From IMG/VR virus record IMGVR_UViG_3300012344_000014, positions 42,581 to 106,580 of that record: DNA of 64,000 nucleotides. One strand, given 5' to 3'. Source of the DNA: a virus. Taxonomy: Duplodnaviria; Heunggongvirae; Uroviricota; Caudoviricetes. Made by a program: the position numbers and the translations under genes. Each line of letters opens with the position of its first letter. Within the stretch, counting starts at the first letter, position 1. The notes below the pieces were generated by a model. The model searched no databases and was not told the origin of the DNA. It was given only the letters and a program-made list of their open reading frames with translations. This document shows positions 24,557-55,567 of this stretch, piece by piece.

Positions 24557-26855
24557 ATTCCTGTCCACCGAAATACCTCCGGTCATATTCATTCTTGCGC
24601 TCGGCCGACCACTTCGACACGCGGGTCAGATAGCCGATGATGCGCGTGGCATAATCCAGATTTTCACTGCTGCACTTTGGGCACTTCTCCAGCTTGTGCT
24701 TGCTGATATACCCGCAGTCGTTGCAGATGGTATTGGGAACGTTGAAGGTAAAATACGAGCAGCCTTCATGAATCGCGTTGAGAATGAGCAGCTCGTACTG
24801 GCGAGCGGTGAGGTGTTCTTCGAGGTTGATATGGCAGGCGCTGCCGCCGTCGAGATTGCGGATATAACGATCGCCATGCAGCCGAATCTTATCAAGAACC
24901 GTTGTTTTAGGATCTTCAACCACGAAGAAATAGCTGTTATAACACGCTCTCGGGACGGAGAGCCCGTCGGCTTTATCCCATTTGGCGTTCTTCACGCCTA
25001 AGCTTTCGGCTGGCACGTACTCCGTGTTAAACATAACGCCCGGCTCGGCATCGGCCACGTTCCGCCGGTGAATCGTATCAAGGATGAGATCAGTGAACTC
25101 GCCGTAAGCCTTGTTGTCACCGACCGGAATGCCCAGATACTCCGCCGCCTCGACCAGACCGTTGATGCCAACGGTAAGATACTGCTTCTCCGGCGAAACG
25201 AACCCTGCGTCATAAAGCGGGATCATATGCTTGGCCTGCGCATCCTTCACCATCGCGTTATACGCTTTCAAATAGCGATGGACATGCGCGGTCAGATCGT
25301 CAAGCGAGGCTTTGACCTTGGCCAGATCGCCGCCGCAGCCCTGAACGAGCCGGTTGATATTGATGGTCATGACGCGCTTGGAGCCGGTCGCGATGCCGCC
25401 CGCGCCAAGGCTGTAAGTGAACTGGTTTTCAACGATGTTGTTTTTCAGGCGGCAGTTATGCGTAATTACTCCGGAGGGAAGCATGAAGTAGGGCTCGCAC
25501 CCATCATCAACCTCGAGGCAGTAAACATAATCGTATGTATTGGCGCTCTCGATCACCTCAGATACCGGGCGGTATGTATACATCCTGCTTTCGGGATCCC
25601 AACACTGGACTTCATCCCCCTCGACGAGCTCCTTCGCCTGGACGTCTCCGCGCCGGGTGGGGAAAAGATGGTTATCCGTCACCTCATACATATGGCGGGC
25701 GTTCGGCTTGACGTCGATTGTGATAAAATACATCTGACGGCCGGGGAGACGAATGAGAGTCGCGGGAACCACTTCCTCACCGAGCATAACCCGAACACGA
25801 AAATCCTGTTCCTGTTCAAGCATCTGGTAAAGACGCTCTGCAGCCCCGACAAGCAATGTGTTATGCTGGTCCCAGACGGAGAACAGTGTATCCGGCGCAA
25901 AGCAGCACGAACTCAAGCTATCCACGCTATCGCTGGTATAAGTGAAAAAACTGTGCCCTTCGGCATACATCTCGGCGATATGCTTCAGTGCCCGCTGGTC
26001 AACAGCCGTCTTGCCGTTGTTCAGGAGAGAGAACGTTTCGACCGGGAAGGTGATGATCTTGCGGAGCCGCTCCTGATTAAACCACTTCATAAACCGAACC
26101 TGCAGCCACCAGAGGGACTCCCAGAGATCGGTCATTACTGTGCCGTCCGGGAAGGCGAAACCTTCGAACAGCCCGCGGAAATACGGCTCATCAAAATAGG
26201 AAATATTCCAGAAGACGGCCTGATTGCCGCGCGCCGCCGCCGGTTGATTGACCGAGTAGACAACCTGCGCGAAGGTATCGGTGATCACGTTATCAATGGT
26301 GCGCTTGCGGCCGAACAGTTCGGCTTGCGTATCCGGCTTCAGATAATAATCTTCGCCGTATTCCTTGACGAGGAAATAGTTCATATAGGCGAGAAACTCC
26401 GGGGTGGCAATCGCGCCGAGCACCTGAGCGGAAGCGGCGAACACCAGATTGACAAACCCGCCGGCGAAACTTTGCAGCGTCTTGGGAGCGTCCGACGTGC
26501 CGCCCAGCCCCTTCAAGCCGTGCAAAAGAAACGGGTACATAGTGATGCTAGCGCAATAGATCTGCGGGGTCTGGCCGGTTTCATCATGGCAATAGACACG
26601 ATGGGTTTCGAGGTTATCAATGTAGCTGTCGGCCTCTTCCTCGCCGTACATGGCGGTGAGCATATCATGCATCATCAACCGGCTGGTATAGATGCGGCCG
26701 CGCTTACCGCTTTCGGACGCGAGGGTGGCCAGATTCTTTGAACTGACATTGGAGTTTGGATCATAGTCGCTGCTTTCGGCGGCGCATTTTTCATCCATAT
26801 AACGTCTGATGAAATTTGCTTCCGGACGATAGCGCGCATATTTGTCGGGGATCAT
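24534..26855 (-). CDS. nrdD: anaerobic ribonucleoside-triphosphate reductase (class III) containing a mini-intein
   Basis: Glycyl-radical motif 'RIIGYLTRV' and C-terminal Cys4 cluster. A ~150-aa Hint-only insertion is present. Confidence 0.9.
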   Translation of the reverse strand: MIPDKYARYRPEANFIRRYMDEKCAAESSDYDPNSNVSSKNLATLASESGKRGRIYTSRLMMHDMLTAMYGEEEADSYIDNLETHRVYCHDETGQTPQIYCASITMYPFLLHGLKGLGGTSDAPKTLQSFAGGFVNLVFAASAQVLGAIATPEFLAYMNYFLVKEYGEDYYLKPDTQAELFGRKRTIDNVITDTFAQVVYSVNQPAAARGNQAVFWNISYFDEPYFRGLFEGFAFPDGTVMTDLWESLWWLQVRFMKWFNQERLRKIITFPVETFSLLNNGKTAVDQRALKHIAEMYAEGHSFFTYTSDSVDSLSSCCFAPDTLFSVWDQHNTLLVGAAERLYQMLEQEQDFRVRVMLGEEVVPATLIRLPGRQMYFITIDVKPNARHMYEVTDNHLFPTRRGDVQAKELVEGDEVQCWDPESRMYTYRPVSEVIESANTYDYVYCLEVDDGCEPYFMLPSGVITHNCRLKNNIVENQFTYSLGAGGIATGSKRVMTININRLVQGCGGDLAKVKASLDDLTAHVHRYLKAYNAMVKDAQAKHMIPLYDAGFVSPEKQYLTVGINGLVEAAEYLGIPVGDNKAYGEFTDLILDTIHRRNVADAEPGVMFNTEYVPAESLGVKNAKWDKADGLSVPRACYNSYFFVVEDPKTTVLDKIRLHGDRYIRNLDGGSACHINLEEHLTARQYELLILNAIHEGCSYFTFNVPNTICNDCGYISKHKLEKCPKCSSENLDYATRIIGYLTRVSKWSAERKNEYDRRYFGGQEYENQTES
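25455..25904 (-). mobile_element. mini-intein (Hint domain, no endonuclease) inside nrdD
   Basis: N-terminal block 'C-FAPDTLFSV' after extein Cys; C-terminal block 'YVYCLEVDDGCEPYFMLPSGVITHN' followed by +1 Cys. About 150 aa. Confidence 0.7.
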
Positions 26856-30201: not shown

Positions 30202-30446
30202 CAGACATACCCCTCGTTTACAAATTCTTCATCCACGTTCGGATTGCGGATATACATGCCGCAGGCGCAATCGCCATGCTCGCGGAAGTCTTTACAGGGG
30301 CACTTCGTATCCTTCGTCTTTTCCCTCTTGCAGGGGCAGAAACCCGAGTTGGCCTTGATTCGTTTCCGAAGGTTCCAAAGAAATTCAGAGTCTGGATTCT
30401 TGATAAACCCATCAAGCATTCTTTTCCTCCCATGTGATATCATCAA
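30201..30446 (-). CDS. FTR/FDR-like catalytic-subunit-like small protein, copy 2
   Basis: 'GFCPCKREKTKDTKCPCKDFREHGDCACGMY'. Start probably at internal 'MLDGFIKNPD'. Confidence 0.5.
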   Translation of the reverse strand: MMISHGRKRMLDGFIKNPDSEFLWNLRKRIKANSGFCPCKREKTKDTKCPCKDFREHGDCACGMYIRNPNVDEEFVNEGYV

Positions 30447-31080
30447 AAATAACGGGAAACAGTTTCTGGAATTCGCAAAGCAACGGGCGCATGAGCGAGC
30501 GCATTTCCGGATAAGCGGCCGACGAGGTGCGCAGCTGAAAAATATGCCGCCATTCCCGCAGGTTTGCCTTCATGACGATGATGCAGGCGGTAGAATTGGG
30601 GAGCACCTTGCGCGCGTCTTCCGCCTTCATGCCGCACTCATACCTGAGATACCGGTAATAAGTTTCGGCATGCTCCATGGACGCATCCCAGCCGCGGGAA
30701 GCGCACCATGTTTTCGCATCCAGATCGGGGCCTTCGGCTGGAAGATAGATATCCGGCCGGATGAAGCTGATATCTCCGGTCTTATCATCTTCGACATAGC
30801 GCTGGCTCTGAACGCAGAAACTGGGGAGCCGGTGCCGTGTGATCTCGGCCAGGACATCGCGCCCGGTGACGAGCTCAACCATGGCGTCGCCAAACTCAAT
30901 AGGGGCTTCATGCCCCCGCTTTATAAGCCCGCCAAGAAACTTGCGCCAGCTATCGGCCGTGATTTTATCATGCGAGCGATAGCAATTACGGGCGGCGTAT
31001 TCGATAAGGCGCAGCGTTTCCAGTGCGCGCTCCGGCGTGGACGGCGAGAGAATCTTAAAAGACTGGTTAATTACCTTCAT
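30412..31080 (-). CDS. thyX: flavin-dependent thymidylate synthase
   Basis: ThyX motif 'RHRLPSFCVQSQRY'. RBS ggagga then ATG at 31080; the ORF track N-terminal extension is spurious. Confidence 0.85.
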   Translation of the reverse strand: MKVINQSFKILSPSTPERALETLRLIEYAARNCYRSHDKITADSWRKFLGGLIKRGHEAPIEFGDAMVELVTGRDVLAEITRHRLPSFCVQSQRYVEDDKTGDISFIRPDIYLPAEGPDLDAKTWCASRGWDASMEHAETYYRYLRYECGMKAEDARKVLPNSTACIIVMKANLREWRHIFQLRTSSAAYPEMRSLMRPLLCEFQKLFPVIFDDITWEEKNA

Positions 31081-31444
31081 CGAAGGTTGATTCCTCCTTT
31101 CCTTCTTCATTATTAATGAGGGAATCCGCCTCGACGCCGTCCGTGTTTTCAGGATCGGTTTCAGCGTATTCGCTATCCCGATCATAGAGGTTGCCGCGCA
31201 TATCGCCGTTGAGGCGCATGAGCAGCGTTTCAAACCGGAGAGAGGAGAGCATAACGGTGCCCTCGTTAAAGAGAATGACGGAGCGGATTTTGCGCCCGAC
31301 CGTCGCATCCAAGAGATGCTTACGGCCTTTGGCAGCTTTGACCTATTCTTTCGAAGTCATGGTGCGCGGGTTAAGAACGGCAATGACATGATTGGCGCAG
31401 ACGGCATGCTTCAGGCCAGCGTTGACAAAGCGCAGTTCTTCCAT
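31067..31444 (-). CDS. RemA/DUF370-like small regulatory protein with in-frame TAG (31343-31345)
   Basis: MEELRFVNAGLKHAVCANHVIAVLNPRTMTSKE-TAG-VKAAKGRKHLLDATVGRKIRSVILFNEGTVMLSSLRFETLL... aligns with B. subtilis RemA ([64 protein letters not shown]). TAG falls at RemA Met/Leu. Confidence 0.55.
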
Positions 31445-32549: not shown

Positions 32550-32600
32550 TCTTTTCATATAATAAAGGGAACATTTTTCACCCCGCTTTTTCAGTTTGAG
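32550..32600 (-). promoter_or_regulatory. conserved promoter-like element, copy 2, upstream of the SPFH operon
   Basis: Minus reading ctgaaaaagcggggtgaAAAATGTTCCCTTTATTATatg. Confidence 0.5.
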
Positions 32601-35600
32601 CGGGCGAAACAGAAATTTTTTTGTAGCCGTCCATCCAAAGCTCAGTCACGCCGGGCTTGACAGAACGTTTGCCATCCTGATACTGATAGGCGGGCTTCTT
32701 CTGCCAGCCAAGGAGCTTGATGACGTCGCCGGCCTTAACGGGATCTTTAGCGAAATCAGGCTTGCGAATTTTCATCACACCGGTGTCTCCGGTGGAGACG
32801 CTATAGAGCTTCAGCTTGGGGCTATATTTCTCATCCACATCAATGACGGCGTAGCAGCCCTTCTTTTCGGGATAGACGCTGAGGGGCGCGCCGAAATAGT
32901 CGCACTCGAAGGGAATGATTTCCTCCATGGGGAGATCTTCATCCGGCAGGGAAGACTCCAGATCGCGCAGGACGGCGAGACGTTTCTGCTGCGTCTTCTC
33001 GACGAGCCCTTTATAGAACCGGTTCTCGCCGGACTTGAACTCCTGAAAGAGCTTGAGCAGTTTGGCGGAGCCGCCGAAATCGCTGAAGTATCCCATCTTG
33101 ATGAGCGCGGTGATGCTGGTGGCGTCGAACGCCGGAGACATATCCATATCGTAAAGCAGATCGGTGAAGTAAAGATACAGCGTATCGCGCATTTTATAGA
33201 GCGCGTCGGCGACTTTTCTACTGACGTGCTTGACGGAGGTGAGCGCGTCGGCGATGGTGTGCGCGCTTTCATCGATAAAGAAATCGCGGTTATCCTGCCC
33301 GAACTTGCAAGCGACGACGCGGATGCCGAACGCCCGACGCATTTCCTCCTTGGCTTTGGCGATGCGGTCTTTATCCTTCTTGGCGGCGTAGGCGCGAAGC
33401 AGGGTGGTGTAATACTGATAAGGATAGTGCGCCTTGAGCCATGCGCCGTAAAGACTATCCAGCGCGACGCAGGTGGCATGCGATGCATTAAAAAGATAGG
33501 AGCAGGAATCGTTGATGATCTGCCAGATTTTATCGGTGGTGGCGAGAGCTTCGGCCTCAGTGACATGCTCCTCCTCCACGATGCGCTGAGAGAACGTGGC
33601 GCGGAACTTTTCCTTGAGAGCGAGCACCTTTTCGGGATGCTTCTTCGAGATGGCCTTGATGGCGGCATAGGATTCAGCCCCAGTGAAACCGCCATGCTGT
33701 AGGACTTTCATGATCTGCTCCTGAAACATGAGGAAGCTGTCGGGAATTTCTTTCGTCTGAAGCAGGTTATCCAGCGAGGGGATACCATAATCGAAATGCC
33801 GGCGGGCGAGGAATGTATCGATCATCGACTTGAAGCCCGGGCGGATGGCGGCGACGAACGCGGCCAGCTCGGTAATATTGCGCGGCTTATAGCGGGCGAC
33901 CTTTTCAGTGGCCTTCTCGCGCTCAACCTGATTGAGCCCCATGGTATAGCCTTTGGCGTACATATCCCAGACTGGATCATCCGGCGGGCACATGGCGAGC
34001 AGTTCGTTAACAGAGGGGAGGGGGATATTGGCGGCCTTGTAGGCGGCGGCGTTGATGTTGACGACGGTGACGGAAAGAAGATCGTTTTTTAGATATCCGT
34101 ATCGATCCGCTGTCGCCCCGTCGATAAAAGCGGCATAAATAGTTCCCTTCTTGCCGGTTTTGCTATTGATACGATAAAGCCCAATTTCCCGGCGGATATC
34201 CTGATCGGTCAGAAGATAGGAACAGGGGCTGGGGGAGATGGAATCGACCATGCCAAGATATTTATTGGACATGCGCAGCTGCTCATGATACTCCTTGGGC
34301 ACGTAATCGAACGGATCGATGGCTTCGCGGTCTTCATCGTCTTCGGCGTATTTTACATCAAGCTCATACTTTTTCAAGCTGTCAGAGATGGCGTTAGCCG
34401 TTTCGAAGGCGACGTTGGTAGAACGGCAATACATCTTCCAGGCGGAAAGCCGTTTGAGCGTGCCAAAGGCGACCATCTGCGCGCTATGCCACTCGCCCAT
34501 GACCTCGGCCTGCGCTTTTTCAAACACCTCAACGTTGCCGCAGTTCAGATCCAAATCCGGCATCTGACCGGTGCTCAGGCGCTCTTTGGAAATAAACCGG
34601 TCGGGGTACATGGTGACGGGCATCTTCAAGCGATCAACGGAGGAGAAGCCGAGAAGCATATTCGTCAGGAAACTGACGCCGCTATTATGGACGACCATAT
34701 GATTAAGTAAGTAGCTGTGTGAATTTTCGATATGCAGATCGTAGACTTTGCACTTCTGCCGAGGTAGAAGATTGATTCCAGTAACTGGAATAAGCCAGTA
34801 CTTGTCGTTTTCAGATATTTTGCGTGACATCCCATAAGGAGTTGAATAAACGGGAATAACCCATTTATATGAGGTTTTGCAGTTATAACCGCGTTTATCA
34901 AACCAACGATCTCGCACTGTAAGCCGCGGCGGCTTCTCTCCAGCTTTCATACAAAGAATATTAAAGGCGTTCATCAAGGAAGGAGATGTATTGTCAAAGC
35001 ATTTACGATCCGATTCAGCAAAACAGCCATCGGTACGCATAAGCCCCGATAAAAAAGCTTTTGATTTCTCGTTATCAAGAAGCAAAATCTCATCGGGGAC
35101 AACTTTATCGTTTCCCTTTTTTGAAATGAAATACGTACAGCCAAGATATTTAGCAAAGGAAGAAGCATGCAGGGTAAGTTGAACCAATTTTTTATTTTTA
35201 GCTTTCGCTTCATAAATAGTTCCGCCAACCCGCGATGCCATAGTCTCAAAGATTTTGCGATTGTAAATATTTTTTTCGTTCTCCGCATTGATGGCAATAC
35301 CACAGACATAACTGCCGTCGTTTCTATGTCGAACCCAGCCGTCTCCATACATCATACCAAGGAATTCGTAATAGAGCGCGTCTTTAACGACCCATCTGCT
35401 CATCAACCGAAAACAAGTATCCTTATATTTTTGCGTAAGCGCTTCTTGAGTATCAACACCATAATAATCGAGTATTTCTCTTTTTGCTTTATTGAGATAT
35501 ACCCCAGGGCCACGACGAACTTCCGCGGAAGTTCGCCCAACAACAAAATTGTATAACGCTGAACGGGAGATGTGGAATTTTTTCATCAGGATTTCCCAGC

Positions 35601-37089
35601 CAAACGCTTCGCGCATCATGTCTTTGCGTAATTCAAAAATATGATCTCCGTCAAATATAGAGGCTCTGCTAATGTATTTGCTGAGATCAACCACTTCGGC
35701 AGTTTGTGAGGCCGGCTGAACAATCTTCGGAATACAAAGCAAATCCCCTTTCTTCAGCCGCGATGCTTCCACCCAGTCATAAGAGCCGTTCAACCGGCAA
35801 ACGAGAACACGATGATCCAACGTACATGTAGGATAAGAGCCAAACATCTTATTCGCCGGAGCCTGAATTTCAACAAGGGGTTCGTCAATATCATAAGAGA
35901 AGGTTTCAATTACTTTTTGATAATCCCCATCCTTATCAATTACAACGTCTCCAGGAGCCACTTGCGAAATTTGTTTCAGCCCGGTCAGTGTTGGCACACG
36001 CGCAGTGTCGGTGAAACAGCCCCTTCCAGATTGGGTTAACACCCCGCCTTCCCGCTTGGCAGTATCGACAACGCGGTTATCAATAAGAAAATAATCCGAA
36101 GTGTTGGTACCGGTAACGGCGTCTGTCTCATACCGGATCGCTTCTTCGTATTCCGGCCAGCGCTCCTGCGGCACTTCAGCTTTATACTGATCCCACGCCT
36201 GATGTACAAGGTCGAGATATTTTTGATTGCGCTCTTCCTGCGTCATGTCGGGATAAGCCGCGGGGAGCTTGCGGCGTTTACCAAACGAGACATCCTCAAA
36301 ATCCAGGAAGACGTTTGTGTTTTCCATCGCTTCATTAATCTGGGCGACGGACAGAACGCCCTGCGCCTTGAACCTGTCGAGCAAATGCTTTTCAGAGGGA
36401 TAATCCATATCCCAACCCTCTTCATCTTCATATTTAAGATGATGGGACTCAAGCAGCTGATCGCGCAGTTTGGAATCCTCCGGGTAAATGAAATGGGAAT
36501 CGGTTGCGGCAATGAGCGGGATATTATACTTGCGATAAAGATCGAGCACGAGCCGGTTGACATCCTTCTGCTTATCGACGTTATGCGCCTGAACCTCGAG
36601 CATGAAGCTGCCGCGGAAATGATCGTTCAAGAGCGTAACGAGCCGTTCGGCCTCCTCCGCGCCGTACTTCCAAATACCGCCGACGCAGGCTGTGGTAACG
36701 AATACATCCTTCGGATCGAGGGCCATGAGCAGATCCAGATCGACGCGGGGGCGATAGTAATAGCCGGTGATATTCGCTTCGGAGAGCGCATAATTCAAAT
36801 CGCCGACGCCTTTGCGCGTCTTCGCTGCCAGAATGAGATGGCAGTTGGATTTGTCTTTTTCGAAGCGGTCCTTGACGAAATAGGCTTCGGTAACATAGCG
36901 CCACTTCAGGCCATACTTTTCAGCTAGCTCGGCGCACTCCCAATAGTTGCCCTGCGTGCCATGGTTACAGGAGGAAAGAACCGTCTGGTTCAGTTCGACG
37001 GCGCGCCTGGCGTAATCCTCCATGGTGGCGACGCTGTCGGCAAGCATGATATTGGAGATGTGATCATGTTTATGATAATTGACGTACAT
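32578..37089 (-). CDS. dnaE: DNA polymerase III alpha subunit (DnaE-type, PHP domain) interrupted by an intein
   Basis: PHP start 'MYVNYHKHDH', palm and fingers motifs. 'GRG|S' extein junction split by a 445-aa insertion. RBS ggaggt then ATG at 37089; the ORF-track N-terminal 135 aa is spurious. Confidence 0.9.
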   Translation of the reverse strand: MYVNYHKHDHISNIMLADSVATMEDYARRAVELNQTVLSSCNHGTQGNYWECAELAEKYGLKWRYVTEAYFVKDRFEKDKSNCHLILAAKTRKGVGDLNYALSEANITGYYYRPRVDLDLLMALDPKDVFVTTACVGGIWKYGAEEAERLVTLLNDHFRGSFMLEVQAHNVDKQKDVNRLVLDLYRKYNIPLIAATDSHFIYPEDSKLRDQLLESHHLKYEDEEGWDMDYPSEKHLLDRFKAQGVLSVAQINEAMENTNVFLDFEDVSFGKRRKLPAAYPDMTQEERNQKYLDLVHQAWDQYKAEVPQERWPEYEEAIRYETDAVTGTNTSDYFLIDNRVVDTAKREGGVLTQSGRGCFTDTARVPTLTGLKQISQVAPGDVVIDKDGDYQKVIETFSYDIDEPLVEIQAPANKMFGSYPTCTLDHRVLVCRLNGSYDWVEASRLKKGDLLCIPKIVQPASQTAEVVDLSKYISRASIFDGDHIFELRKDMMREAFGWEILMKKFHISRSALYNFVVGRTSAEVRRGPGVYLNKAKREILDYYGVDTQEALTQKYKDTCFRLMSRWVVKDALYYEFLGMMYGDGWVRHRNDGSYVCGIAINAENEKNIYNRKIFETMASRVGGTIYEAKAKNKKLVQLTLHASSFAKYLGCTYFISKKGNDKVVPDEILLLDNEKSKAFLSGLMRTDGCFAESDRKCFDNTSPSLMNAFNILCMKAGEKPPRLTVRDRWFDKRGYNCKTSYKWVIPVYSTPYGMSRKISENDKYWLIPVTGINLLPRQKCKVYDLHIENSHSYLLNHMVVHNSGVSFLTNMLLGFSSVDRLKMPVTMYPDRFISKERLSTGQMPDLDLNCGNVEVFEKAQAEVMGEWHSAQMVAFGTLKRLSAWKMYCRSTNVAFETANAISDSLKKYELDVKYAEDDEDREAIDPFDYVPKEYHEQLRMSNKYLGMVDSISPSPCSYLLTDQDIRREIGLYRINSKTGKKGTIYAAFIDGATADRYGYLKNDLLSVTVVNINAAAYKAANIPLPSVNELLAMCPPDDPVWDMYAKGYTMGLNQVEREKATEKVARYKPRNITELAAFVAAIRPGFKSMIDTFLARRHFDYGIPSLDNLLQTKEIPDSFLMFQEQIMKVLQHGGFTGAESYAAIKAISKKHPEKVLALKEKFRATFSQRIVEEEHVTEAEALATTDKIWQIINDSCSYLFNASHATCVALDSLYGAWLKAHYPYQYYTTLLRAYAAKKDKDRIAKAKEEMRRAFGIRVVACKFGQDNRDFFIDESAHTIADALTSVKHVSRKVADALYKMRDTLYLYFTDLLYDMDMSPAFDATSITALIKMGYFSDFGGSAKLLKLFQEFKSGENRFYKGLVEKTQQKRLAVLRDLESSLPDEDLPMEEIIPFECDYFGAPLSVYPEKKGCYAVIDVDEKYSPKLKLYSVSTGDTGVMKIRKPDFAKDPVKAGDVIKLLGWQKKPAYQYQDGKRSVKPGVTELWMDGYKKISVSPAQTEKAG
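34684..36018 (-). mobile_element. full-length intein with LAGLIDADG homing endonuclease in dnaE
   Basis: Begins 'CFTDTARVPTL' after GRG and ends 'LNHMVVHN' before Ser. Two LAGLIDADG motifs ('LGMMYGDGW', 'LSGLMRTDGCF'). Confidence 0.75.
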
Positions 37090-38071: not shown

Positions 38072-38175
38072 ATGAAAGCACAGCACAAAATGACCATTGA
38101 CGTTTTGCGCTCCGGCGATGTATGATATAAATGATATCCGAGGTAATATTCAGTCCCTCCCAAAGGAGAATGAAT

Positions 38176-38421
38176 ATGAAAAAAGGTATCATTATCACGC
38201 TCGCGCTTGTTACATTTCTTGTAGCTGTTTTCAGCTTTGACATTCCGGCAATATCCGCGCTGGGTATTGCTTAGGCGCTGGAAACATTCCTGCGCAAGTG
38301 GGATGGCGCAAGTACAGCCTGTTTGATCGTAAGCCTTTTAGGAATGTACTCTTCTCTGTTTGGATGGATCGGCGTCGCCCTTGCTGCGCTTGATCTATAC
38401 CAGACATAGAGGAAACGATGA
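38176..38421 (+). CDS. small two-TM membrane protein with in-frame TAGs (38272-38274 and 38407-38409); true stop TGA at 38419
   Basis: RBS aaaggag. MKKGIIITLALVTFLVAVFSFDIPAISALGIA-TAG-ALETFLRKWDGASTACLIVSLLGMYSSLFGWIGVALAALDLYQT-TAG-RKR then TGA. Paralogue of 38548. Confidence 0.45.
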
Positions 38422-38433
38422 AACAGGCGGAGA

Positions 38434-38462
38434 AGAAGCCCCCCACGGGGCTTTTTCTTTTA
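38434..38462 (+). terminator. rho-independent terminator
   Basis: gaagccccccacggggcttttt then cttt. Confidence 0.6.
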
Positions 38463-38547
38463 TGGGCTGGAATAAACAGACAGAATATGATATACTATCA
38501 TTGATATCCGAGAAAATATTTAGTCCCTCCCCGAAAGGAGAATAAAT

Positions 38548-38793
38548 ATGAACAAAGATATCAAAACCAAAGCTGCGCTGTTCCTTGCCGCAGTTAACGT
38601 ACTGCTGGCGATTGCCGGTCTGTTCTTCCCGCTCGCGTCGTTATAGACGCTGGCCTGGGCGCTGGCTGGCTTCCTGCAAAAACAGGACGTCGAAACCGCA
38701 TGCTGTCTCATTGTGGGCCTTTAGGGGATGAGCTTCTCCGCCTTTGGATGGGTCGGACTCGGCATTGCCGTTGCCGCCCTGATACTGGCGCGG
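38548..38793 (+). CDS. paralogous small membrane protein with two in-frame TAGs (38644-38646, 38722-38724)
   Basis: MNKDIKTKAALFLAAVNVLLAIAGLFFPLASL-TAG-TLAWALAGFLQKQDVETACCLIVGL-TAG-GMSFSAFGWVGLGIAVAALILARKAQ then TGA. First TAG is at the same position as in 38176; second TAG aligns with Leu of paralogue 'SLLGMY'. Confidence 0.45.
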
Positions 38794-38803
38794 AAAGCGC
38801 AAT

Positions 38804-38837
38804 GAGACGAAGACGGAGCCTTGCTACAAGCAGGGCT
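38804..38837 (+). terminator. rho-independent terminator
   Basis: ggagccttgctacaagcagggctc then tttcttttt. Confidence 0.55.
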
Positions 38838-38880
38838 CTTTCTTTTTGCCAATGGCCATTTTGTGCCGTGCTTTACAGAG

Positions 38881-40083
38881 TTAATTTTTCAATTCGACGA
38901 GATACTTGACGGTCGTCTGGCATTCCTGATAGACGATGATCTCGTCGTTGCGGAGCATTGCCCCTTCATGCGCATGCAGACAGTTCGCGCCGGGACATGC
39001 GGCCTGAAGTTTTTCATAGTTGAAGGAGTTATAAGCGCCGGAGAAAGAATGAACGTCGTACGGTTTGCCGTAGGCGACCTCATACAGTCCCATAAAAGCG
39101 CTGTTCTCACTGCCTTTAGCCCAATAAGAACCGGAAAGGGAAGTGTAACCAAGCGACTTGCGCGCCTTTGTGGCGAAATAGATACCGTAACCGAACATCT
39201 TGCCGGTGATAACCGCGTTGGTGGGCTTGAGAACAAGGCCGCCGGTGAGGATGGACCACCAGTTTTCATTGCGGCTGCCATGCCAGAGCAGCTTGGTAGC
39301 GATATGAGCAGGCTCGACATAATTATCGAACGCCTGCTGGGTACGAAGGTTCCGAACCCGCCACGCCTGACGGAATTTATCGGCGCAGGAACCGAGGCAG
39401 GACTTGATTTTAATGATGTCTTCGGGCGTTGCTTCTTCAAAGACAAGACCGTTCGCCTCGAGGACGGTCTGCTGTACTGGAGCAGTATCGACAACTTTTA
39501 CCGGCTGCGGGACATAGACCTGACCGCGCATAATATCCAGCAGATCCTGTTCTCGGCGGATAATATCGCCGAACTGGTCGACCGAAGTGGCCAAATGAGA
39601 GCGGACGCTGGCCATGCGGCGGGGAATAATGCCGAACAATTCCGACAACAGCAGATTAAAATCATTCAAGCTGCGTTTATCAACCAGCGCGTTCAGCATG
39701 AGCTGCGCTTCATCGACCATCGCCATAGTGACCTTGTTGGACGAGATGGTGTAGTTCTCCGCAACCGCCTGCCGCGCCATTTCTCTCAGCCGGCGGACAA
39801 TTTCAGCGATGGGTTTCTGCAGGATCGGCCGATAATCATCTGTAACAGGCTGTACTTCAATCAGGTCTTGCACAAGCCATGTACGATCAACATACCCTTT
39901 GGAAAGCTTTTCGTTGTATTTCTTCTCCCAGTCCCGGAGGGAGTAAGTCCGGCGCTGCGGACTCGCCCCCACGCGGCCATAAGCCGCCTCCCAGACGAAG
40001 CCCATCGGGGTCATATCATAATATTTATTATTGTTGGCGTCGGCGGATATTTTCACCAGCCGCCGCGGCGTATATTCCATCAC
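38881..40083 (-). CDS. PARP-like ADP-ribosyltransferase with N-terminal WGR domain
   Basis: WGR: 'KYYDMTPMGFVWEAAYGRVGASPQ'. Catalytic domain 'LLWHGSRNENWWSILTGGL...GKMFGYGIYFATKARKSLGY...GLYEVAYGKPY' retains the His/Tyr/Glu triad. Confidence 0.7.
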   Translation of the reverse strand: MMEYTPRRLVKISADANNNKYYDMTPMGFVWEAAYGRVGASPQRRTYSLRDWEKKYNEKLSKGYVDRTWLVQDLIEVQPVTDDYRPILQKPIAEIVRRLREMARQAVAENYTISSNKVTMAMVDEAQLMLNALVDKRSLNDFNLLLSELFGIIPRRMASVRSHLATSVDQFGDIIRREQDLLDIMRGQVYVPQPVKVVDTAPVQQTVLEANGLVFEEATPEDIIKIKSCLGSCADKFRQAWRVRNLRTQQAFDNYVEPAHIATKLLWHGSRNENWWSILTGGLVLKPTNAVITGKMFGYGIYFATKARKSLGYTSLSGSYWAKGSENSAFMGLYEVAYGKPYDVHSFSGAYNSFNYEKLQAACPGANCLHAHEGAMLRNDEIIVYQECQTTVKYLVELKN

Positions 40084-40535
40084 AGCGTATACACCAGAAT
40101 ATCGACGCGCGTATCCTCAAAGGTTTCGAGAATCAGCTCACGAACATCATCCCAGTTCAAACGATCGAGCCCGCAGCCGATGCGCGGCATGGCGAGGCGG
40201 GTGATCCCACGCTCCTGAATGTGCCGGCGGAGATCGAACAGAGCGGCTCCAAGCGTTTCAAGCGTGGGTTTTTCATAGCACCGTTCTTTGGTGACGAGGT
40301 TATAGACATCCAGCACAGGGAGCGCGCAAGGCCCCCAGCCTTCAAAATCATATTCGCCGTACATCTGGCGAAGCTTTTCCTTCATATTATACTGGGTATC
40401 AATCTGCCTGGCGACGCCAGCGCCCAGAGCAAAATCCGCGCTAATGCAATGCACAAGCGCCCAGCCGCGGGGCGCGCTGAGCAGATCGCCTTTGATTTCA
40501 GAGAACGTCAATTTCGGATTACAGGTTTCGCACAT
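40080..40535 (-). CDS. macrodomain protein (ADP-ribose binding/hydrolase)
   Basis: 'LVHCISADFALGAGVARQI' and 'ITRLAMPRIGCGLDRLNWDDV' macro motifs. Translationally coupled to the PARP-like gene. Confidence 0.7.
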   Translation of the reverse strand: MCETCNPKLTFSEIKGDLLSAPRGWALVHCISADFALGAGVARQIDTQYNMKEKLRQMYGEYDFEGWGPCALPVLDVYNLVTKERCYEKPTLETLGAALFDLRRHIQERGITRLAMPRIGCGLDRLNWDDVRELILETFEDTRVDILVYTL

Positions 40536-40550
40536 ATCAATTTCCTCCTG

Positions 40551-41861
40551 TCAATAATAGCTGACTTCTTTGCCGGGCTCACGCAGATCTTTGAAAACCG
40601 GGAAACGGAGCGACTCGACGCCCGATTTATCCTGCGTGACCTCAAAATACTGCACCGTAGCGACCCGACCGATAAATTGGGACGGATTCGCCCAGACCTC
40701 GCGGCGGAAAGAATCCGTCATGCCGGAGCCGACACGGACGGGATTGCCCTTAAAATCCACCACCAATGCGCCGAGCGTGCCCTTGAAGCGGCCGCCGCCT
40801 TCTTCAACACCGGTGATTGCAAGATCACAATCCTGCATGGCTTTAACCTTAAGCAGATTCCGGGTGCGCTTGAACTCATAGGGCGCGTCGAGCAGGTTGA
40901 TCATCACGCCTTCATGATTGAGGCCGCGCTGAATTTCAAGATGGCGAAGGATTTCATTCGCATCGCCGCCGACATAGAGGACGGGAACGACCTTGATATG
41001 CTCGACATCATGGACGATCGCTTCCAACTCCTGCCGGCGAAGGTAATACGGCGTGGTGCAGTCATGGTTGAGAAAGACGCTGTAATCGACGATATCGAAA
41101 GCGTTGAAGACGACGCCGCGCTTCTCGCCATCCCGGCGGACGACCTGCACGGTGCGCTTATACTGCTCTTTGCTGGGAATATTCTCCCTGTCCGCGATGA
41201 GCAGCTCGCCGTCAAGCACAAAGCCAAGCGCGCCGCTATCGGTAAGCGTGAGAATATCATCTTCCAACTCGACAAGCCCTTCGATGGGCTGACCCTGCCG
41301 GGTATAGAAACGGGGCGACTTGCCCTTCTCGGCCACGCACTGACAGCGAACGCCGTCCAGCTTTTCGGTAAGCGCGAAACGTTTGCCTTCAACCGCTTCG
41401 GGATGCTCGAAATATTTCTCGGCCAGCATGCATTCATACACGGGAATAACCGTGCGGCCAAGAACCCTGTTGACCGTCTTGGCGGAAATACCGAGCGGAA
41501 TATCTTTACAGAGGAATCGAACAAGGAACTCGCGCAAGGCCGGGTCGGCTATATTGGAGAGCGTATATTGCAGCTTGGCGAGAACTTGCATATCTGCGGC
41601 GCGCAGGCCGGACAAATATTCGCACATGGTAAAAAGATCATCCCAATATGAAGCCAGCGTGATATTCAAATTTTTCTCAAGCGACCTGCGCTGAACATGA
41701 AAGACGACCATAGGATCGAGCAGAAGCTTCAGGGCGGAAAACGCCGCAGGACTCTGGGCGCAGGCCAGAATTTCCGGCTCTTTCGCCTTGCCTCGCGCGG
41801 TTTGAATCGCATCGAAGCAAGGCCTGATTTCGTGAAGCTGAGATTCAAGAGTGAAAGACAT
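40551..41861 (-). CDS. ATP-dependent DNA ligase
   Basis: Adenylation motif I 'EKLDGVRCQ'; nucleotidyltransferase plus OB domains. RBS aaggaa then ATG at 41861; the ORF-track N-terminal 101 aa is spurious. Confidence 0.75.
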   Translation of the reverse strand: MSFTLESQLHEIRPCFDAIQTARGKAKEPEILACAQSPAAFSALKLLLDPMVVFHVQRRSLEKNLNITLASYWDDLFTMCEYLSGLRAADMQVLAKLQYTLSNIADPALREFLVRFLCKDIPLGISAKTVNRVLGRTVIPVYECMLAEKYFEHPEAVEGKRFALTEKLDGVRCQCVAEKGKSPRFYTRQGQPIEGLVELEDDILTLTDSGALGFVLDGELLIADRENIPSKEQYKRTVQVVRRDGEKRGVVFNAFDIVDYSVFLNHDCTTPYYLRRQELEAIVHDVEHIKVVPVLYVGGDANEILRHLEIQRGLNHEGVMINLLDAPYEFKRTRNLLKVKAMQDCDLAITGVEEGGGRFKGTLGALVVDFKGNPVRVGSGMTDSFRREVWANPSQFIGRVATVQYFEVTQDKSGVESLRFPVFKDLREPGKEVSYY

Positions 41862-42167
41862 GATGTATTCCTTTCTTGATTGATGTATAATTGCGTTATG
41901 CGGCCAGAGGCGAGGGAACCCATTTCGCACGATACGTTGAAGGGAAGGAGGCCACAGCTTCAAATGGAGAAGATAGTAACAATTTAGAACATTATTCTGA
42001 TTGTGCTTCAGCTGATTGCAGCTGCGTTCGAGTTGGCTAAACCACAGGACACCGCTGTGACCATCCATGTTGAGGGCAATAACAACAACGTTATTGTCAT
42101 TGTCAACACTGGGATGAAGTAACAACCGCCAGTGATGACGCGCCGTGTTACTTCTCCGGCGCATAAC

Positions 42168-42198
42168 GCAAAAGGAATTGCGCGCGAATCGCGCAAGG
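42168..42198 (-). terminator. hairpin plus T-tract on the minus strand after the PAPS-reductase-like gene
   Basis: ttgcgcg-cgaat-cgcgcaa stem with ttcctttt on the minus strand. Confidence 0.4.
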
Positions 42199-42201
42199 AA
42201 A

Positions 42202-43064
42202 TTACACAGATAAATACCAGGCCATTACCTCTTCAGGCGAAGACCACAGATCGTTCGGCAAACCACGTTCGTCCCGCGCTTTCAACATCCGGTCGAACGC
42301 GCGAAGATACGCTTCTTCATATTTCGGATATCGTTCAAAATCGCGCTGGCGATTTTTTACGGAGCCCATCGGGCAACCGATACAGCCGAGCCGGCCATAG
42401 CCTTCATCATACAGACGGCAATGCGGAACCTGAACCACATCGTTCAGGAAAGACCAGACTTCCTCTGTCGACCAATCGATGATGGGGTTGACGAGCGTTT
42501 TCATGGTACGATAACAAACTTCCACCATACGGCGGGACGAATCGTTATCATCGTTCAGGATGATACCGCCCTTCGAGCCTTCATGGAAATCGATGCCGCG
42601 CGTTAACGCAATCCGTTTCGCCCTTGCGGGCTGCTGGAGGATTTCCACAGAGCCGTGCATGGCGGCGCGGCGAGGGCTTTCCGCCCAGCGGACGCCCGTT
42701 ATTGTAACACGCCCCTACCCGCCGGACTCTTTCAGATCGGCACAGCAATACCGCGCGCTCCGGGACGGCGGCTTGCCAACGGCGGGAATCAAATTCCACA
42801 TGGTGATCGGGTTTCCGGCCGCGTTATACGGGATTTCCCGCGCTACGTCAGGATAATGATCCCGAATGAAACGAACCAGTTCAGGCGGGTCCACGCTTGT
42901 GACGCGATAATGCGCATCAAATTTAACGCCGGCCATTTCGCACAGATGATAAACGCATTGAGAATCTTTGCCGCCGGAGAAGGCGACATAGTACCCCTCT
43001 TCGGGCTCGAAGGTACGCAGCTTCAGGAGCGCCGCGTCGATTTTTCTCTGATCGATCATCATCT
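42202..43064 (-). CDS. PAPS reductase-family (PP-loop ATP pyrophosphatase) protein with in-frame TAG (42715-42717)
   Basis: The N-half (ORF 42715-43116, 'AFSGGKDS' PP-loop) and C-half (ORF 42202-42660) are in the same frame, separated by one TAG: ...CADLKESGG-TAG-GRVTITGVRWAESPRRAAM... Start ATG overlaps the upstream TGA. Confidence 0.65.
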
Positions 43065-43931
43065 CTCCAATATCTCCTCGCAGAGGGGGCAGGAATTCAG
43101 CACGCCGCAGATCCACCGGCAGAAATACTTATCTTTATGCGGCCTCCAATCAAACTCAAAGAGAATTTTCTCGATCGTATCGACGACCCAGGCCATGGCG
43201 GCGTTATATGCGGCCGCGTCGAACGGTTCATCAATGAAGGTGCCATCCCGGAACATGTTGAAGCGCAGCCGGGCGGGGAAAACGCCGAATTTCTGCTTGA
43301 CAAACGCGGCGTAAACATAGAGCTGCTTGCGATAAGTATCCAGTTCCTTTTTCATGGAGCTCATGGACTTGGATTTATGATCGATGACCTCAATTTCGCC
43401 GGTTTCGCGATTTTTGAGCACCAAGTCGGCGATTCCAACGAAAGGATAACCGCCGATTTCAATTTCGAACCGCTCTTCAGCGGCCAGAATATCATATTGA
43501 TCACCGAAGCCGGAGAAAGTCTCGAAATATTCAAGGCCAGCGTCGTAATATTTCTGCGGCATGCCTTTGGGGAACGGGGGGAAGGAGTGCTGAAGCGCCT
43601 GATCATATCCTTCCTCATACTCGGACGCCATAAGAAAGTCGGGGAGCTCGCCCTTCGCCCATTTTTCCAGAATTTCATGACAGTGCGTACCGTATTCGGC
43701 GAAGGCGTTATTCTCATTGGGGACGCGATCGATATACTGGAGTTTATAAGCCAGAGGACATTGTTCAAAGGTTGCCAGACGGGAAAAAGACCACTTGGTT
43801 TCGGGAGGAATAGCGGCATCACCTCGATGGATATGGTATAATGGCTCTGCGCAGACAACGCCGAGCCAAGCCTTTATAAAAAGGAAGGTGTAACGACTGG
43901 ACACGGAGCGCCCTGCAAGGGGCGAAGGCAC
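43059..43931 (-). CDS. PD-(D/E)XK nuclease, Cas4/RecB-like, with C-terminal Cys cluster
   Basis: '...IADLVLKNRETGEIEVIDHKSK...QLYVY' nuclease core and 'CRWICGVLNSCPLC' Fe-S-like Cys cluster. Confidence 0.7.
   Translation of the reverse strand: MPSPLAGRSVSSRYTFLFIKAWLGVVCAEPLYHIHRGDAAIPPETKWSFSRLATFEQCPLAYKLQYIDRVPNENNAFAEYGTHCHEILEKWAKGELPDFLMASEYEEGYDQALQHSFPPFPKGMPQKYYDAGLEYFETFSGFGDQYDILAAEERFEIEIGGYPFVGIADLVLKNRETGEIEVIDHKSKSMSSMKKELDTYRKQLYVYAAFVKQKFGVFPARLRFNMFRDGTFIDEPFDAAAYNAAMAWVVDTIEKILFEFDWRPHKDKYFCRWICGVLNSCPLCEEILER
43825..43842 (+). promoter_or_regulatory. extended -10 promoter (TGgTATAAT) driving a structured ~190-nt leader and small ORF
   Basis: ggatatggtataatgg at 43831-43844. 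Confidence 0.45.
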
Positions 43932-51843: not shown

Positions 51844-52800
51844 TCACCACGGCAGCGTATTCACCGCCCTCGCGAGCTGCTCGGGATGGGAGTGATCATA
51901 CCGGTTGGTAACGCGCAGAGACGAGTGGTTCGCGCAGTCCCTCGCCACGCCGGCGCCGTTACGCTTTTCAACCTCGGAGATGAAAGTATGCCGCAGGCAA
52001 TGAGGCCCTGTGGCAAGGCCGAGCTGTTTCTGCTTGAATGCGAGCGCGCCGTAAACGGTTTTGCGGTTCATCGGCTGACCGTGCGTGGAGAGGAAGAGCG
52101 GGCGGGAATGATCGTCCGCGTCGGGGCGGGTTTGAAGATATGCGTCGAGCACGTCGTAGAACGAATCCTTAACGTAAACATCCTCCCAGTTGCCGCCCTT
52201 GCGTTTGCAGTAAATTTTGCCGCGTTCGCCGTCGAGCACGTCGCCGATGGTCAGGGCGCACAGCTCGCTCACGCGCATGCCGGATTCCAGAATAAGCGTG
52301 CAGATGGCGCGATCGCGCAGTTTATTGCGGCCGGGCATATCGCCGAGCAGTTTGCGCGTCTGCTGGACGGTCATGTATTTCTCCTTGCGCTCCCATTTGG
52401 GGACGGCCTTCTCATTGGGGAGCTTATGCGTGGTCAGCACGCCGCTGAGATCTTCCGCCGTGGCCTGCGCGACCTTCCACGCCCAGCGGAGGAACGGGTT
52501 GAGCATGCAGACGTAATTATTGCGCGTCGTCATCTTGCAACGAACGGACAGATGGTTATAATACGCATCCAGCACGGACGGCGTAAGGCCGGAGAGTTCG
52601 TTCTCCCCGACCTGCACGCCGTAGTTCCGCTCCAGCTGCCGGAGGATGCGGTTCAAGACCTCGGCGCAATGCGCCGCTGAAACATCCGAAGCGCCGCCCG
52701 CCTTATAGCTTGCGGCGTAGCGTTCAACCAGCCTGTACATTTCCCTGTTCCCTCCTTCTGCGCGCGGCGACGATCTGCTTATATTCCTCAACGACCTCAT
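51844..52800 (-). CDS. tyrosine recombinase (XerC/D/phage-integrase family)
   Basis: 'HCLRHTF' and 'RVTNRYDH' (R-H-R-Y catalytic residues). Confidence 0.8.
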   Translation of the reverse strand: MRSLRNISRSSPRAEGGNREMYRLVERYAASYKAGGASDVSAAHCAEVLNRILRQLERNYGVQVGENELSGLTPSVLDAYYNHLSVRCKMTTRNNYVCMLNPFLRWAWKVAQATAEDLSGVLTTHKLPNEKAVPKWERKEKYMTVQQTRKLLGDMPGRNKLRDRAICTLILESGMRVSELCALTIGDVLDGERGKIYCKRKGGNWEDVYVKDSFYDVLDAYLQTRPDADDHSRPLFLSTHGQPMNRKTVYGALAFKQKQLGLATGPHCLRHTFISEVEKRNGAGVARDCANHSSLRVTNRYDHSHPEQLARAVNTLPW

Positions 52801-54941: not shown

Positions 54942-55567
54942 CAGTTGTCACCTCCTTTAAGAATGCCCGCTTCATACATCATTCGCAGCGTTTTTGCGGG
55001 GAAAAGCGGAAGGTATTTTTCAAGCTGAGGAAGCGTCAACCCCACATTTTTCATATACCGGCGAATAGCTGGGGCCGTCTGGGCGACCGAAAGATCAGAG
55101 TAGGAATCCAGATCTTTGAACAGATCGAGCAGTTGGAGCGCTTTGGCATTTTCCGCTGTGACGGTGACGCGCGGCTTGCGAAGAACGAATTCCTGATTGC
55201 GGATTCGCACCGTCCTGCGCCACGAATTCGTCCGATTGGTTACAATTTCCCGCACCTGCGGAACCTGCAAGCTTGCGCCAACCTGATTGGCGAACGTGAA
55301 ACCGGAATAGTATCCGTCCGTAGCGCCTGCGCGGCTGATATATTTGCGCAGCGCCACAAGATCGGGGGACAGCGATGCGCCTCCCCTCAGGCGCGTCTGC
55401 GCCGGAATATAATATACACCGTTTTCATAGCGGACGATTTTTCCTGCGTCGCACAGCGTTTTGAATTGCTGGCGGAGACTGTCTTTACGCACGCCGGGGA
55501 GAGAAACGTCCGAAAGAAAGATGGGCTCGTTCGGCCGATACTGCGAACGCAGATAATCATACAGCAT
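54941..55567 (-). CDS. abiEi: AbiEi-family antitoxin/transcriptional regulator
   Basis: Position, 1-nt overlap with the toxin gene, and wHTH-like N-terminus. Confidence 0.65.
   Translation of the reverse strand: MLYDYLRSQYRPNEPIFLSDVSLPGVRKDSLRQQFKTLCDAGKIVRYENGVYYIPAQTRLRGGASLSPDLVALRKYISRAGATDGYYSGFTFANQVGASLQVPQVREIVTNRTNSWRRTVRIRNQEFVLRKPRVTVTAENAKALQLLDLFKDLDSYSDLSVAQTAPAIRRYMKNVGLTLPQLEKYLPLFPAKTLRMMYEAGILKGGDN

Follow-up and report, generated by a model that had tools for sequence, protein, structure and literature searches.

What would a bacteriophage gain from a PARP-like ADP-ribosyltransferase, a macrodomain protein and a DNA ligase carried side by side? The question is raised by a 64,000-nucleotide stretch of Caudoviricetes DNA (positions 42,581 to 106,580 of the IMG/VR record IMGVR_UViG_3300012344_000014; hereafter the window). 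Three close-packed open reading frames (ORFs), encoding a ligase, a macrodomain protein and a PARP, occupied its minus strand from 41861 to 38881. A first-pass annotation of the sequence had suggested either a DNA-break-sensing and repair module or an anti-defence system aimed at NAD+/ADP-ribose-based immunity. The reading that we favour, with a probability of roughly 45%, is a nick- or break-activated ADP-ribosylation switch, which a hydrolase would reset and which would be linked to ligation while phage DNA is replicated or repaired. The comparative data presented below (the domain layout of the PARP, the replication-gene setting, and a ligase flanking the unit in 16 of 67 lineages) lend support to the break-sensing proposal but do not demonstrate an activity. 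The anti-defence alternative was neither supported nor excluded.

Identity of the Three Proteins

The PARP matched the Pfam catalytic domain (E = 1.3e-21) and the Pfam WGR model (25.6 bits, cutoff 22), the PDB entries of PARP2 and PARP1 (~1e-11) and PHROG 23333 (E = 5e-50). In a profile alignment, its WGR domain paired with 'NNNKYY...RWGRVG' of the PARP2 WGR domain, NNNKYY and (W/Y)GRVG being common to both. The WGR domain had been located in the first-pass annotation at 'VWEAAYGRVG'; the domain is there, but the tryptophan of this string is not the motif residue, and the triplet is Y35-G36-R37. In the same way the histidine of LLWHGS (H268) stood as part of the catalytic signature, whereas the glutamate proposed within 'LYEVAYGK' (E335) did not: by alignment to PARP2 and PARP1, on which the placement of the whole triad depends, the catalytic residue would be E381. 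The residues H268, Y302, E381, K309 and Y313 were invariant in 76 PARP homologues sharing 35–92% identity.

A first AlphaFold model, based on 41 close homologues, was discarded (pLDDT of 69.8, a disordered active-site region, Foldseek TM scores of 0.3–0.4). The second, based on 76 more diverse homologues, reached a pLDDT of 91.6 and a pTM of 0.86. The structure search against known PARPs, proposed earlier as a check, retrieved with this model the DNA-bound chains of PARP1 and PARP2 comprising the WGR and catalytic domains, with TM scores of 0.60–0.65, and 351 residues superposed on the PARP1 chain. Together with the profile alignment to the WGR and helical domains of PARP2, the second model establishes a minimal protein of the PARP2/3 type made of a WGR domain, a helical domain (HD) and an ADP-ribosyltransferase (ART) domain. 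Its architecture was that of clade 1 (ARTD, DNA-dependent): an ART fold with the H-Y-E triad, an HD directly N-terminal to it, and a WGR domain.

The macrodomain expected next to the PARP was confirmed and could be assigned to the TARG1/OARD1 type. Its score against the generic Pfam Macro model was marginal (21.9 bits, cutoff 22), but residues 12–151 aligned with residues 9–146 of human TARG1 (4j5q, E = 7.2e-27), a full-length match, with 42% identity to human TARG1/OARD1 by BLASTP; the protein also matched PHROG 335 (E = 1.9e-21). It is a stand-alone protein of about 150 residues, in which K83 and D124 are equivalent to the Lys84/Asp125 dyad of human TARG1. Among the TARG1-like lineage representatives, the catalytic lysine was found in 41 of 42 and the aspartate in 34 of 42. 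The 151-residue protein is predicted to be an ADP-ribosyl hydrolase. In two related loci (L024:4986-5990 and L028:4989-5990), an ORF of about 334 codons ended in the TARG1-like domain, and its N-terminal half matched the AAA_28 P-loop family. This may be a kinase/NTPase-macrodomain fusion or a start-codon artefact of the simple ORF caller.

The third protein had been annotated as an ATP-dependent DNA ligase with a KxDG motif, and this held. It matched DNA_ligase_A_M (E = 1.4e-18) and DNA_ligase_OB_2 (E = 1.8e-13) in Pfam and PHROG 114 (E = 1e-80), and residues 41–427 aligned with all three domains of the Prochlorococcus ligase Pmar-Lig (PDB 6ras, E = 2.4e-32). Motifs I (K167LDG), III (DGELL217), IV (EGVMI317), V (LLKVK336) and VI (RFPVF419) were all present. 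The layout was that of the T4/Pmar-Lig type, with an N-terminal helical DNA-binding domain, a nucleotidyltransferase (NT) domain and an OB_2 domain. PADLOC assigned the ligase to no defence system. As judged from sequence similarity, the scores obtained for the ligase, TARG1 and PARP matches are far beyond chance.

Gene Order and Junctions

The order PARP, macrodomain, ligase given in the first-pass annotation had to be reversed: the three genes are on the minus strand, so that the ligase gene is transcribed first and the PARP gene last. The ligase and macrodomain genes were separated by a 15-nt spacer containing a Shine-Dalgarno sequence (Table 1). The translational coupling proposed for the macrodomain and PARP genes was borne out by their stop/start overlap, CTGTGATGG. 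With the GTG start at 40083 the overlap is 4 nt, and with the ATG at 40080 it is 1 nt; public gene calls take the ATG, giving a 399-residue product (P0001). The junctions of the three genes are operon-like.

An eraser gene placed first and overlapping the next start codon is also typical of antitoxin-toxin pairs. The locus could be a cassette for abortive infection, or one resembling a toxin-antitoxin system, in a temperate phage, in which case the PARP would be the toxin and the macrodomain the antitoxin, following the logic of DarTG, and which would guard the lysogen against superinfection. The phage is temperate and has two integrases, a large serine recombinase (15920-17605, minus strand) and a tyrosine enzyme (51844-52800, minus strand). 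It possesses another toxin-antitoxin/abortive-infection gene, AbiEii, and its macrodomain resembles that of DarG (PADLOC, E = 2.9e-16). However, the 151-residue protein covers only positions 6–143 of the 329 of the DarG profile and has no C-terminal toxin-binding domain, and the PARP matched no PADLOC model (NCBIfam has no model for it). The pair is co-oriented with, and inside, the lytic replication genes rather than in a lysogeny or moron region, and the cassette hypothesis leaves the recurrent adjacency of ligase and DnaE genes, described below, unexplained. We regard it as very improbable.

Conservation of the Writer-Eraser Pair

A PARP homologue was present in 16 of 50,697 cultured phage genomes (Cellulophaga phi4:1-like, Klebsiella, Xanthomonas, Stenotrophomonas and huge phages). 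Among uncultured sequences the homologues formed 4359 clusters at 90% identity (E ≤ 1e-5), and 622 clusters of representatives at 50% identity reached E ≤ 1e-30. The best 150 of these representatives were mostly about 360–450 residues long and matched over nearly their full length. The rarity announced by the first-pass annotation is therefore real for cultured phages and does not extend to uncultured ones.

To define lineages, 77 viral and 27 genomic loci of 12–14 kb were fetched, corresponding to 67 PARP lineages at 90% identity. Of these, 36 had a TARG1-like macrodomain gene at most 100 nt upstream of the PARP gene; the number rose to 42 when distances of up to 1.5 kb were admitted, and to 45 when any macrodomain near the PARP was counted. 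In L045 and L058 a different macrodomain, with a generic Pfam Macro match, stood beside the PARP instead of the TARG1-like one. The wider spacings resulted from the insertion of homing-endonuclease-like genes. The pairing of writer and eraser is the conserved core of the locus.

Several observations concern the spacing and the partner of the PARP in its relatives. Genes of the GIY-YIG or DUF4379 treble-clef zinc finger type lay exactly between the macrodomain and PARP genes at L040:5132-5656, L066:4684-6000 and also L054:3923-4720. In relatives of the Bacilli or Clostridium type devoid of a TARG1-like macrodomain, the gene directly after the PARP encoded a conserved C-terminal domain of about 65 residues with the consensus 'ER..KVIH..ATIVILDDGSKG.AKC...D.YNK.TG.KIAY.RAKIK' (L101:8224-8532, L103:8199-8504, L045:7199-7672, L098:8210-8680, L050:7223-7636, L057:2498-3079 and L077:7202-7774). 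This small protein had no match in Pfam or the PDB in the Bacilli-type relatives, and it may be an alternative PARP partner. The small PARP-adjacent genes of Cellulophaga phi4:1 and Klebsiella FBKp34 were considered as hidden TARG1 homologues and rejected, as they gave no BLASTP or Pfam signal. PARP contigs were also encountered in metagenome-assembled genomes (MAGs) labelled Candidatus Nanoarchaeia, Absconditabacterales and Treponema (L108, accession JAQUVJ010000002.1, L093 and L088). The Nanoarchaeia-labelled contig (73 kb) encoded a PARP with 41% identity and an ATP-dependent ligase one gene downstream. Archaea are said to be without PARPs (PMC4245714), and this contig is either viral, a binning error or a real exception.

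Association with Ligases and Replication Genes

A DNA ligase gene flanked the unit, at 800 nt or less, in 16 of the 67 lineages, the enzyme being ATP-dependent in 11 and of the NAD-dependent LigA type in five. When the entire fetched loci were considered, a ligase was present in 26 lineages, and in 16 of these 26 it was directly flanking. At least five arrangements were seen: ATP-dependent ligase, macrodomain, PARP; NAD-dependent ligase, macrodomain, PARP; NAD-dependent ligase, PARP (L057); PARP, small gene, ATP-dependent ligase; and PARP, small gene, NAD-dependent ligase (L077). Directly 5' of the macrodomain-PARP pair, the window and several lineages, whose ligases shared just 25–53% identity, had an ATP-dependent ligase, and other lineages had a NAD-dependent LigA with a BRCT domain. 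The order PARP, small gene, ATP-dependent ligase was shared by Paenibacillus-type prophages and Cellulophaga phi4:1, the PARP of the latter being 30% identical. Since ATP- and NAD-dependent ligases take each other's place at the same position, and the orders vary, the association seems to have been under selection and not simply inherited, an argument tempered by the common replication-module setting and by the relatedness of the lineages, to which we return below. In lineages without an adjacent ligase, the neighbour was usually DnaE (19 lineages) or a gene of nucleotide metabolism, for instance NrdD, a dNMP kinase, NT5C or Band_7, and the unit was always found among replication or nucleotide-metabolism genes. 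In the window it is surrounded by genes for a primase-helicase, SSB, a PD-(D/E)XK exonuclease, DnaE, NrdD, ThyX and a dUTPase.

Fusions of WGR domains to ATP-dependent ligases of the NT-OB_2 type have been described in some bacteria (PMC7470946). The ligase of the window has the same core, and these fusions hint independently at a link between WGR proteins and ligation.

In about three quarters of the lineages the ligase is not in the immediate neighbourhood, which would suit a function in host takeover or counter-defence. The PARP would then modify host proteins, like Alt and Mod of T4, or drain host NAD+, the macrodomain would shield the phage against its own PARP or strip defensive ADP-ribosylation put on DNA by host toxins of the DarT type, and the ligase would merely be a neighbouring replicative gene. 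The similarity of the macrodomain to that of DarG, seen with both PADLOC and NCBIfam, is in agreement with such a role. TARG1 reverses the thymidine ADP-ribosylation made by DarT, and DarTG is an anti-phage system (PMC9411070). In phages, stand-alone TARG1-like macrodomains are far commoner than PARPs (209 against 16 records), and the PARPs of jumbo phages have been suggested to act on host proteins in the manner of phage ADP-ribosyltransferases (PMC7824862). On the other hand, the conserved WGR sensor and autoinhibitory helical domain would be needless in a constitutive host-modifying toxin. The pair belongs to the replication module, not to a set of early, moron or anti-defence genes, and where TARG1 is missing another type of macrodomain stands in, which argues for an eraser that serves the PARP. 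No NAD-salvage gene turned up among the approximately 40 ORFs of the window that were scanned. Both a simple toxin and a constitutive host-modifying enzyme are made less likely by the retention of the sensor and autoinhibitory domains, by the location in the replication module and by the ligase or DnaE adjacency. A takeover or counter-defence function is, in our opinion, doubtful.

Proposed Mechanism

We propose that the three proteins act in succession on phage DNA. The WGR domain would bind phage DNA at nicks or ends, during replication or after damage, and this binding would lift the autoinhibition exerted by the helical domain. The ART domain would then spend NAD+ to ADP-ribosylate the PARP itself, neighbouring replication and repair proteins or the 5'-phosphate of the DNA, as mono- or perhaps poly-ADP-ribose. 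The co-translated TARG1-like protein would remove the modification, either en bloc from glutamate or aspartate or off the DNA phosphate, and so reset the site. Finally the nick would be sealed by the ligase, ATP-dependent in the window and NAD-dependent in sister phages, through a physical or functional hand-off. Precedents exist for separate steps. A bacterial WGR-PARP from Herpetosiphon needs DNA for its activity (PMC8120803, PMC5966428), and PARP3 mono-ADP-ribosylates 5'-phosphates at breaks, a modification that TARG1 reverses and that reportedly leaves the ends ligatable (PMC8385414).

Several points weigh against this switch. Only about a quarter of the lineages show ligase adjacency, which may in part come from all these genes belonging to the replication module, and the 67 lineages are not independent of one another in their phylogeny. 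TARG1/Poa1p-like macrodomains occurred in 209 cultured phage genomes and PARPs in 16, which implies that the macrodomain can act independently of a PARP. The WGR tryptophan of the phage PARP is replaced by a tyrosine, and its helical region is too diverged to match the Pfam PARP_reg model. Two residues before the catalytic glutamate it has an asparagine where PARP1 and PARP2 have a tyrosine (Y986 in PARP1). In PARP1, the tyrosine position preceding the catalytic glutamate influences chain elongation and branching, and the substitution makes polymer synthesis by the phage enzyme uncertain. Promoter and terminator support for one single transcript is weak: no promoter was identified in a scan of the 340-nt leader preceding the ligase gene, and the 12 terminator-like sites of the region, against 7.3 ± 3.2 expected, were not a significant enrichment.

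The chemistry of the 5'-phosphate suggests a different use of the same proteins. The PARP could cap DNA ends reversibly, shielding their 5'-phosphates from host exonucleases such as AddAB/RecBCD, and the TARG1-like enzyme could uncap them before the ligase circularises or joins the DNA. PARP2 and PARP3 act on the 5'-phosphates of double-strand breaks and nicks in a reaction that TARG1 reverses, and the modified ends resist phosphatase, although the ADP-ribosylation of DNA ends by PARPs is so far an in vitro activity (PMC8385414). The TARG1/DarG clade works on DNA-linked ADP-ribose (PMC9411070), and the writer, the eraser and the ligase form one tight unit. But the sequence does not discriminate DNA from protein targets, and an enzyme made after infection cannot protect the incoming ends. 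We consider end capping decidedly unlikely.

Returning to the break-activated switch, its boldest form would give large temperate Firmicutes phages a break-signalling circuit of their own, complete in itself and eukaryote-like. In it a sensor-writer of the PARP2/3 type, together with a TARG1 eraser and a ligase, would mark unligated nicks or Okazaki junctions, or cap 5'-phosphate ends reversibly until ligation. This version is speculative and, as a whole, unlikely. If true, it would make DNA- or replisome-linked ADP-ribosylation a physiological step in a prokaryotic virus, and this abundant phage family could then be considered as a reservoir, either source or sink, of the patchily distributed eukaryotic TARG1 and of the minimal clade-1 PARP architecture.

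Relation to Known Systems

Human PARP2 and PARP3, of the DNA-dependent clade 1, are about 17–23% identical to the phage PARP, which lacks their N-terminal tail. The closest bacterial counterparts of the pair are the PARP-PARG systems, with the PARPs of Herpetosiphon aurantiacus (HaPARP) and Clostridioides difficile (CdPARP), in which a prokaryotic PARP of the WGR-(helical)-ART kind likewise has an ADP-ribose hydrolase as its partner. HaPARP depends on DNA, and poly(ADP-ribose) is made in vitro by both enzymes; the WGR-PARP_cat proteins of a 'Clostridiales clade' have the same domain layout as the phage family (PMC8120803, PMC5966428). In C. difficile CD160 the PARP and PARG genes have distant locus tags, QEW_4625 and QEW_4455 (PMC5966428), whereas the phage genes are adjacent, translationally coupled, phage-borne and ligase-linked. 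Membership of the PARP-PARG group was rejected: the GGG-X6-8-QEE signature of PARG (DUF2263) was absent from the 151-residue eraser, which is of the TARG1 type.

Full-length PARP homologues with 25–30% identity over 97–98% of the query, all in PHROG 23333, were found in Cellulophaga phi4:1 (gp031), Klebsiella FBKp34, Xanthomonas XacN1 and Stenotrophomonas CM1. In phi4:1 an ATP-dependent ligase lies one gene from the PARP, recalling the flanking ligase of the window. These phages differ in having hosts among Bacteroidota and Proteobacteria, in having the PARP first in the gene order and in that no macrodomain was detected in the adjoining small genes.

The eraser has the length and the Lys84/Asp125 dyad of human TARG1/OARD1 and of FmTARG1 of Fusobacterium mortiferum, but is phage-borne and coupled to a PARP. 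FmTARG1, which removes O-acetyl-ADP-ribose, mono(ADP-ribose) as well as poly(ADP-ribose), has a polymorphic-toxin-like context in a genome without PARP (PMC6397177). DarTG is also a writer-eraser pair with a TARG1-like macrodomain as eraser, but its writer is DarT and not a PARP. The locus was rejected as a DarTG system, the C-terminal domain of DarG (a protein of about 330 residues) being absent and the NCBIfam DarG score being 48.8 bits for a cutoff of 250. No DarT was detected by PADLOC in the genes flanking the macrodomain, which are those of the PARP and the ligase. In the WGR-fused ligases of delta-proteobacteria, Planctomycetia and Prochlorococcus (PMC7470946), the NT-OB_2 core is the same, but the WGR domain is fused to the ligase and there is no ART domain, while here it belongs to a separate PARP gene.

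Separate reports exist for phage PARPs (PMC4245714, PMC7824862), for bacterial PARPs (PMC5966428) and for bacterial TARG1 (PMC6397177). In the searchable literature, whose coverage leaves out subscription journals, no description of a conserved TARG1-PARP(-ligase) operon in phages came to light. Break signalling by PARPs has been viewed as a largely eukaryotic affair; bacterial PARPs have been seen as sporadic transfers whose function is unknown, and those of phages as curiosities (PMC4245714, PMC8120803). Here a complete minimal sensor-writer appears firmly joined to an eraser of the TARG1 type, and often to a ligase as well, across at least 67 phage and prophage lineages defined at 90% identity. 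Clostridia and Bacilli, both as isolates and as MAGs, encoded related PARPs (Ruminococcus, Lacrimispora, Lachnospiraceae, Clostridium and Paenibacillus), and the hosts are therefore Firmicutes. Among the isolates with a PARP-bearing prophage were Ruminococcus sp. YE282, Lacrimispora amygdalina and Paenibacillus medicaginis. Several 'bacterial PARPs' are probably prophage genes, and this likely explains the 'Clostridiales' PARPs as well as the Firmicutes TARG1s. The unit offers a genetically tractable system for studying the roles of a PARP2/3-like enzyme and of TARG1 at nicks, including whether ADP-ribosylation of DNA ends is physiological. It may represent a new layer in the conflict between phage and host over NAD+ and ADP-ribose, and it bears on the origin of eukaryotic PARP/TARG1 signalling.

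Boundaries of the Unit and Neighbouring Sequences

The features of the locus are listed in Table 1. The 340-nt leader 5' of the ligase gene is the probable start of the transcription unit. A terminator-like hairpin (42196..42178) directly follows the gene preceding the leader, but it is weak evidence as such sites were not significantly enriched. Beyond the PARP gene, a GC-rich hairpin could close the unit as a bidirectional terminator. Neither an Rfam nor a tRNA scan gave a hit anywhere in the window, and thus no RNA element is involved.

Table 1. Coordinates of the ligase-macrodomain-PARP locus in the window.
Feature	Position	Strand	Basis
Untranslated leader 5' of the ligase gene, 340 nt	41862..42201	-	Promoter/terminator scan
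ATP-dependent DNA ligase, 436 aa (gene 1)	41861..40551	-	Pfam, PDB, PHROG
Ligase motif I lysine K167, predicted KxDG adenylation site	41361..41363	-	Aligned to 'IKLDGVR' of Pmar-Lig
Ligase-macrodomain spacer, 15 nt, with AGGAGG Shine-Dalgarno	40536..40550	-	Sequence reading
TARG1/OARD1-type macrodomain, 151 aa (gene 2)	40535..40080	-	PDB, BLASTP, PHROG
Macrodomain K83 (VTKE), position of human TARG1 catalytic Lys84	40287..40289	-	Alignments
Macrodomain D124 (GCGLDRL), position of human TARG1 Asp125	40164..40166	-	Alignments
Macrodomain stop/PARP start overlap, CTGTGATGG	40078..40085	-	Sequence reading
PARP2/3-like ADP-ribosyltransferase, 400 aa, WGR-HD-ART (gene 3)	40083..38881	-	Pfam, PDB, PHROG
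WGR domain, residues 8-67, N17NNKYY22 and Y35-G36-R37-V-G	39883..40062	-	Pfam; profile alignment
Helical domain (HD/PARP_reg-like), residues ~88-236	39376..39822	-	
ART catalytic domain, residues 237-399	38887..39375	-	
Predicted catalytic-triad His H268 (LLWHGS)	39280..39282	-	Aligned to PARP2/PARP1 'LLWHGS'
Predicted catalytic-triad Tyr Y302 (GYGIYFA)	39178..39180	-	Aligned to 'GKGIYFA'
Predicted catalytic Glu E381 (LRNDEIIVY)	38941..38943	-	Aligned to PARP2 'YNEYIVY' Glu
GC-rich hairpin, 42 nt past the PARP stop	38815..38839	.	Scored as + strand terminator

The phage origin assumed for the window was confirmed by its tail, integrase and replication genes. It encodes tail-fibre proteins, the large serine integrase, a primase-helicase, NrdD and a PD-(D/E)XK exonuclease, and also SSB, the tyrosine integrase, Bro/ANT antirepressors, AbiEii, PhoH, ClpP, serine hydroxymethyltransferase (SHMT) and ThyX. 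Independent metagenomes yielded 18 contigs, the longest of about 119 kb, that encode the identical PARP protein in an unchanged gene order. A nucleotide search of the locus against the 50,697 phage genomes found nothing, and the phage is therefore without cultured relative. It is a temperate phage from gut-type Firmicutes.

An approximately 800-nt cassette (38075-38874) was observed between a PASTA/PG-binding gene and the PARP stop codon. An inverted repeat of 25 nt (38075-38099 and 38850-38874) with 92% complementarity, for which shuffled sequences gave no chance match, encloses it. The interior contains a tandem duplication on the + strand with a spacing of about 370 nt, comprising a promoter-like element, a Shine-Dalgarno sequence and an ORF for a hydrophobic peptide of 32 residues. 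Its small genes were also called in independent assemblies, and the whole has the look of a small peptide cassette, mobile or toxin-like.

Further from the unit, the AbiEii toxin gene was located at 54012-54941 with a possible partner at 54941-55567, and three Bro-N/ANT antirepressor genes at 57907-59052, 60590-61126 and 61414-62172. The gene for the DnaE-type DNA polymerase III alpha subunit (32578-37089, minus strand) is interrupted by an intein, with a Pfam Intein_splicing match in the public call and a LAGLIDADG-like insert in the translation. The genes for SHMT, ThyX and the anaerobic ribonucleotide reductase were found on the minus strand at 22067-23308, 30412-31308 and 24534-26855, respectively. 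With the dUTPase of the public calls, they make up an unusually complete set for thymidylate synthesis in a phage of about 118 kb. On the other side of the leader, a PAPS-reductase-like gene (42202-43116, minus strand) with weak similarity to BrxP of PADLOC was split into two ORFs, 43116..42715 and 42660..42202, one matching the N-terminal half of the family profile and the other its C-terminal half. The split was identical in four independent metagenome assemblies and is therefore not a sequencing error.

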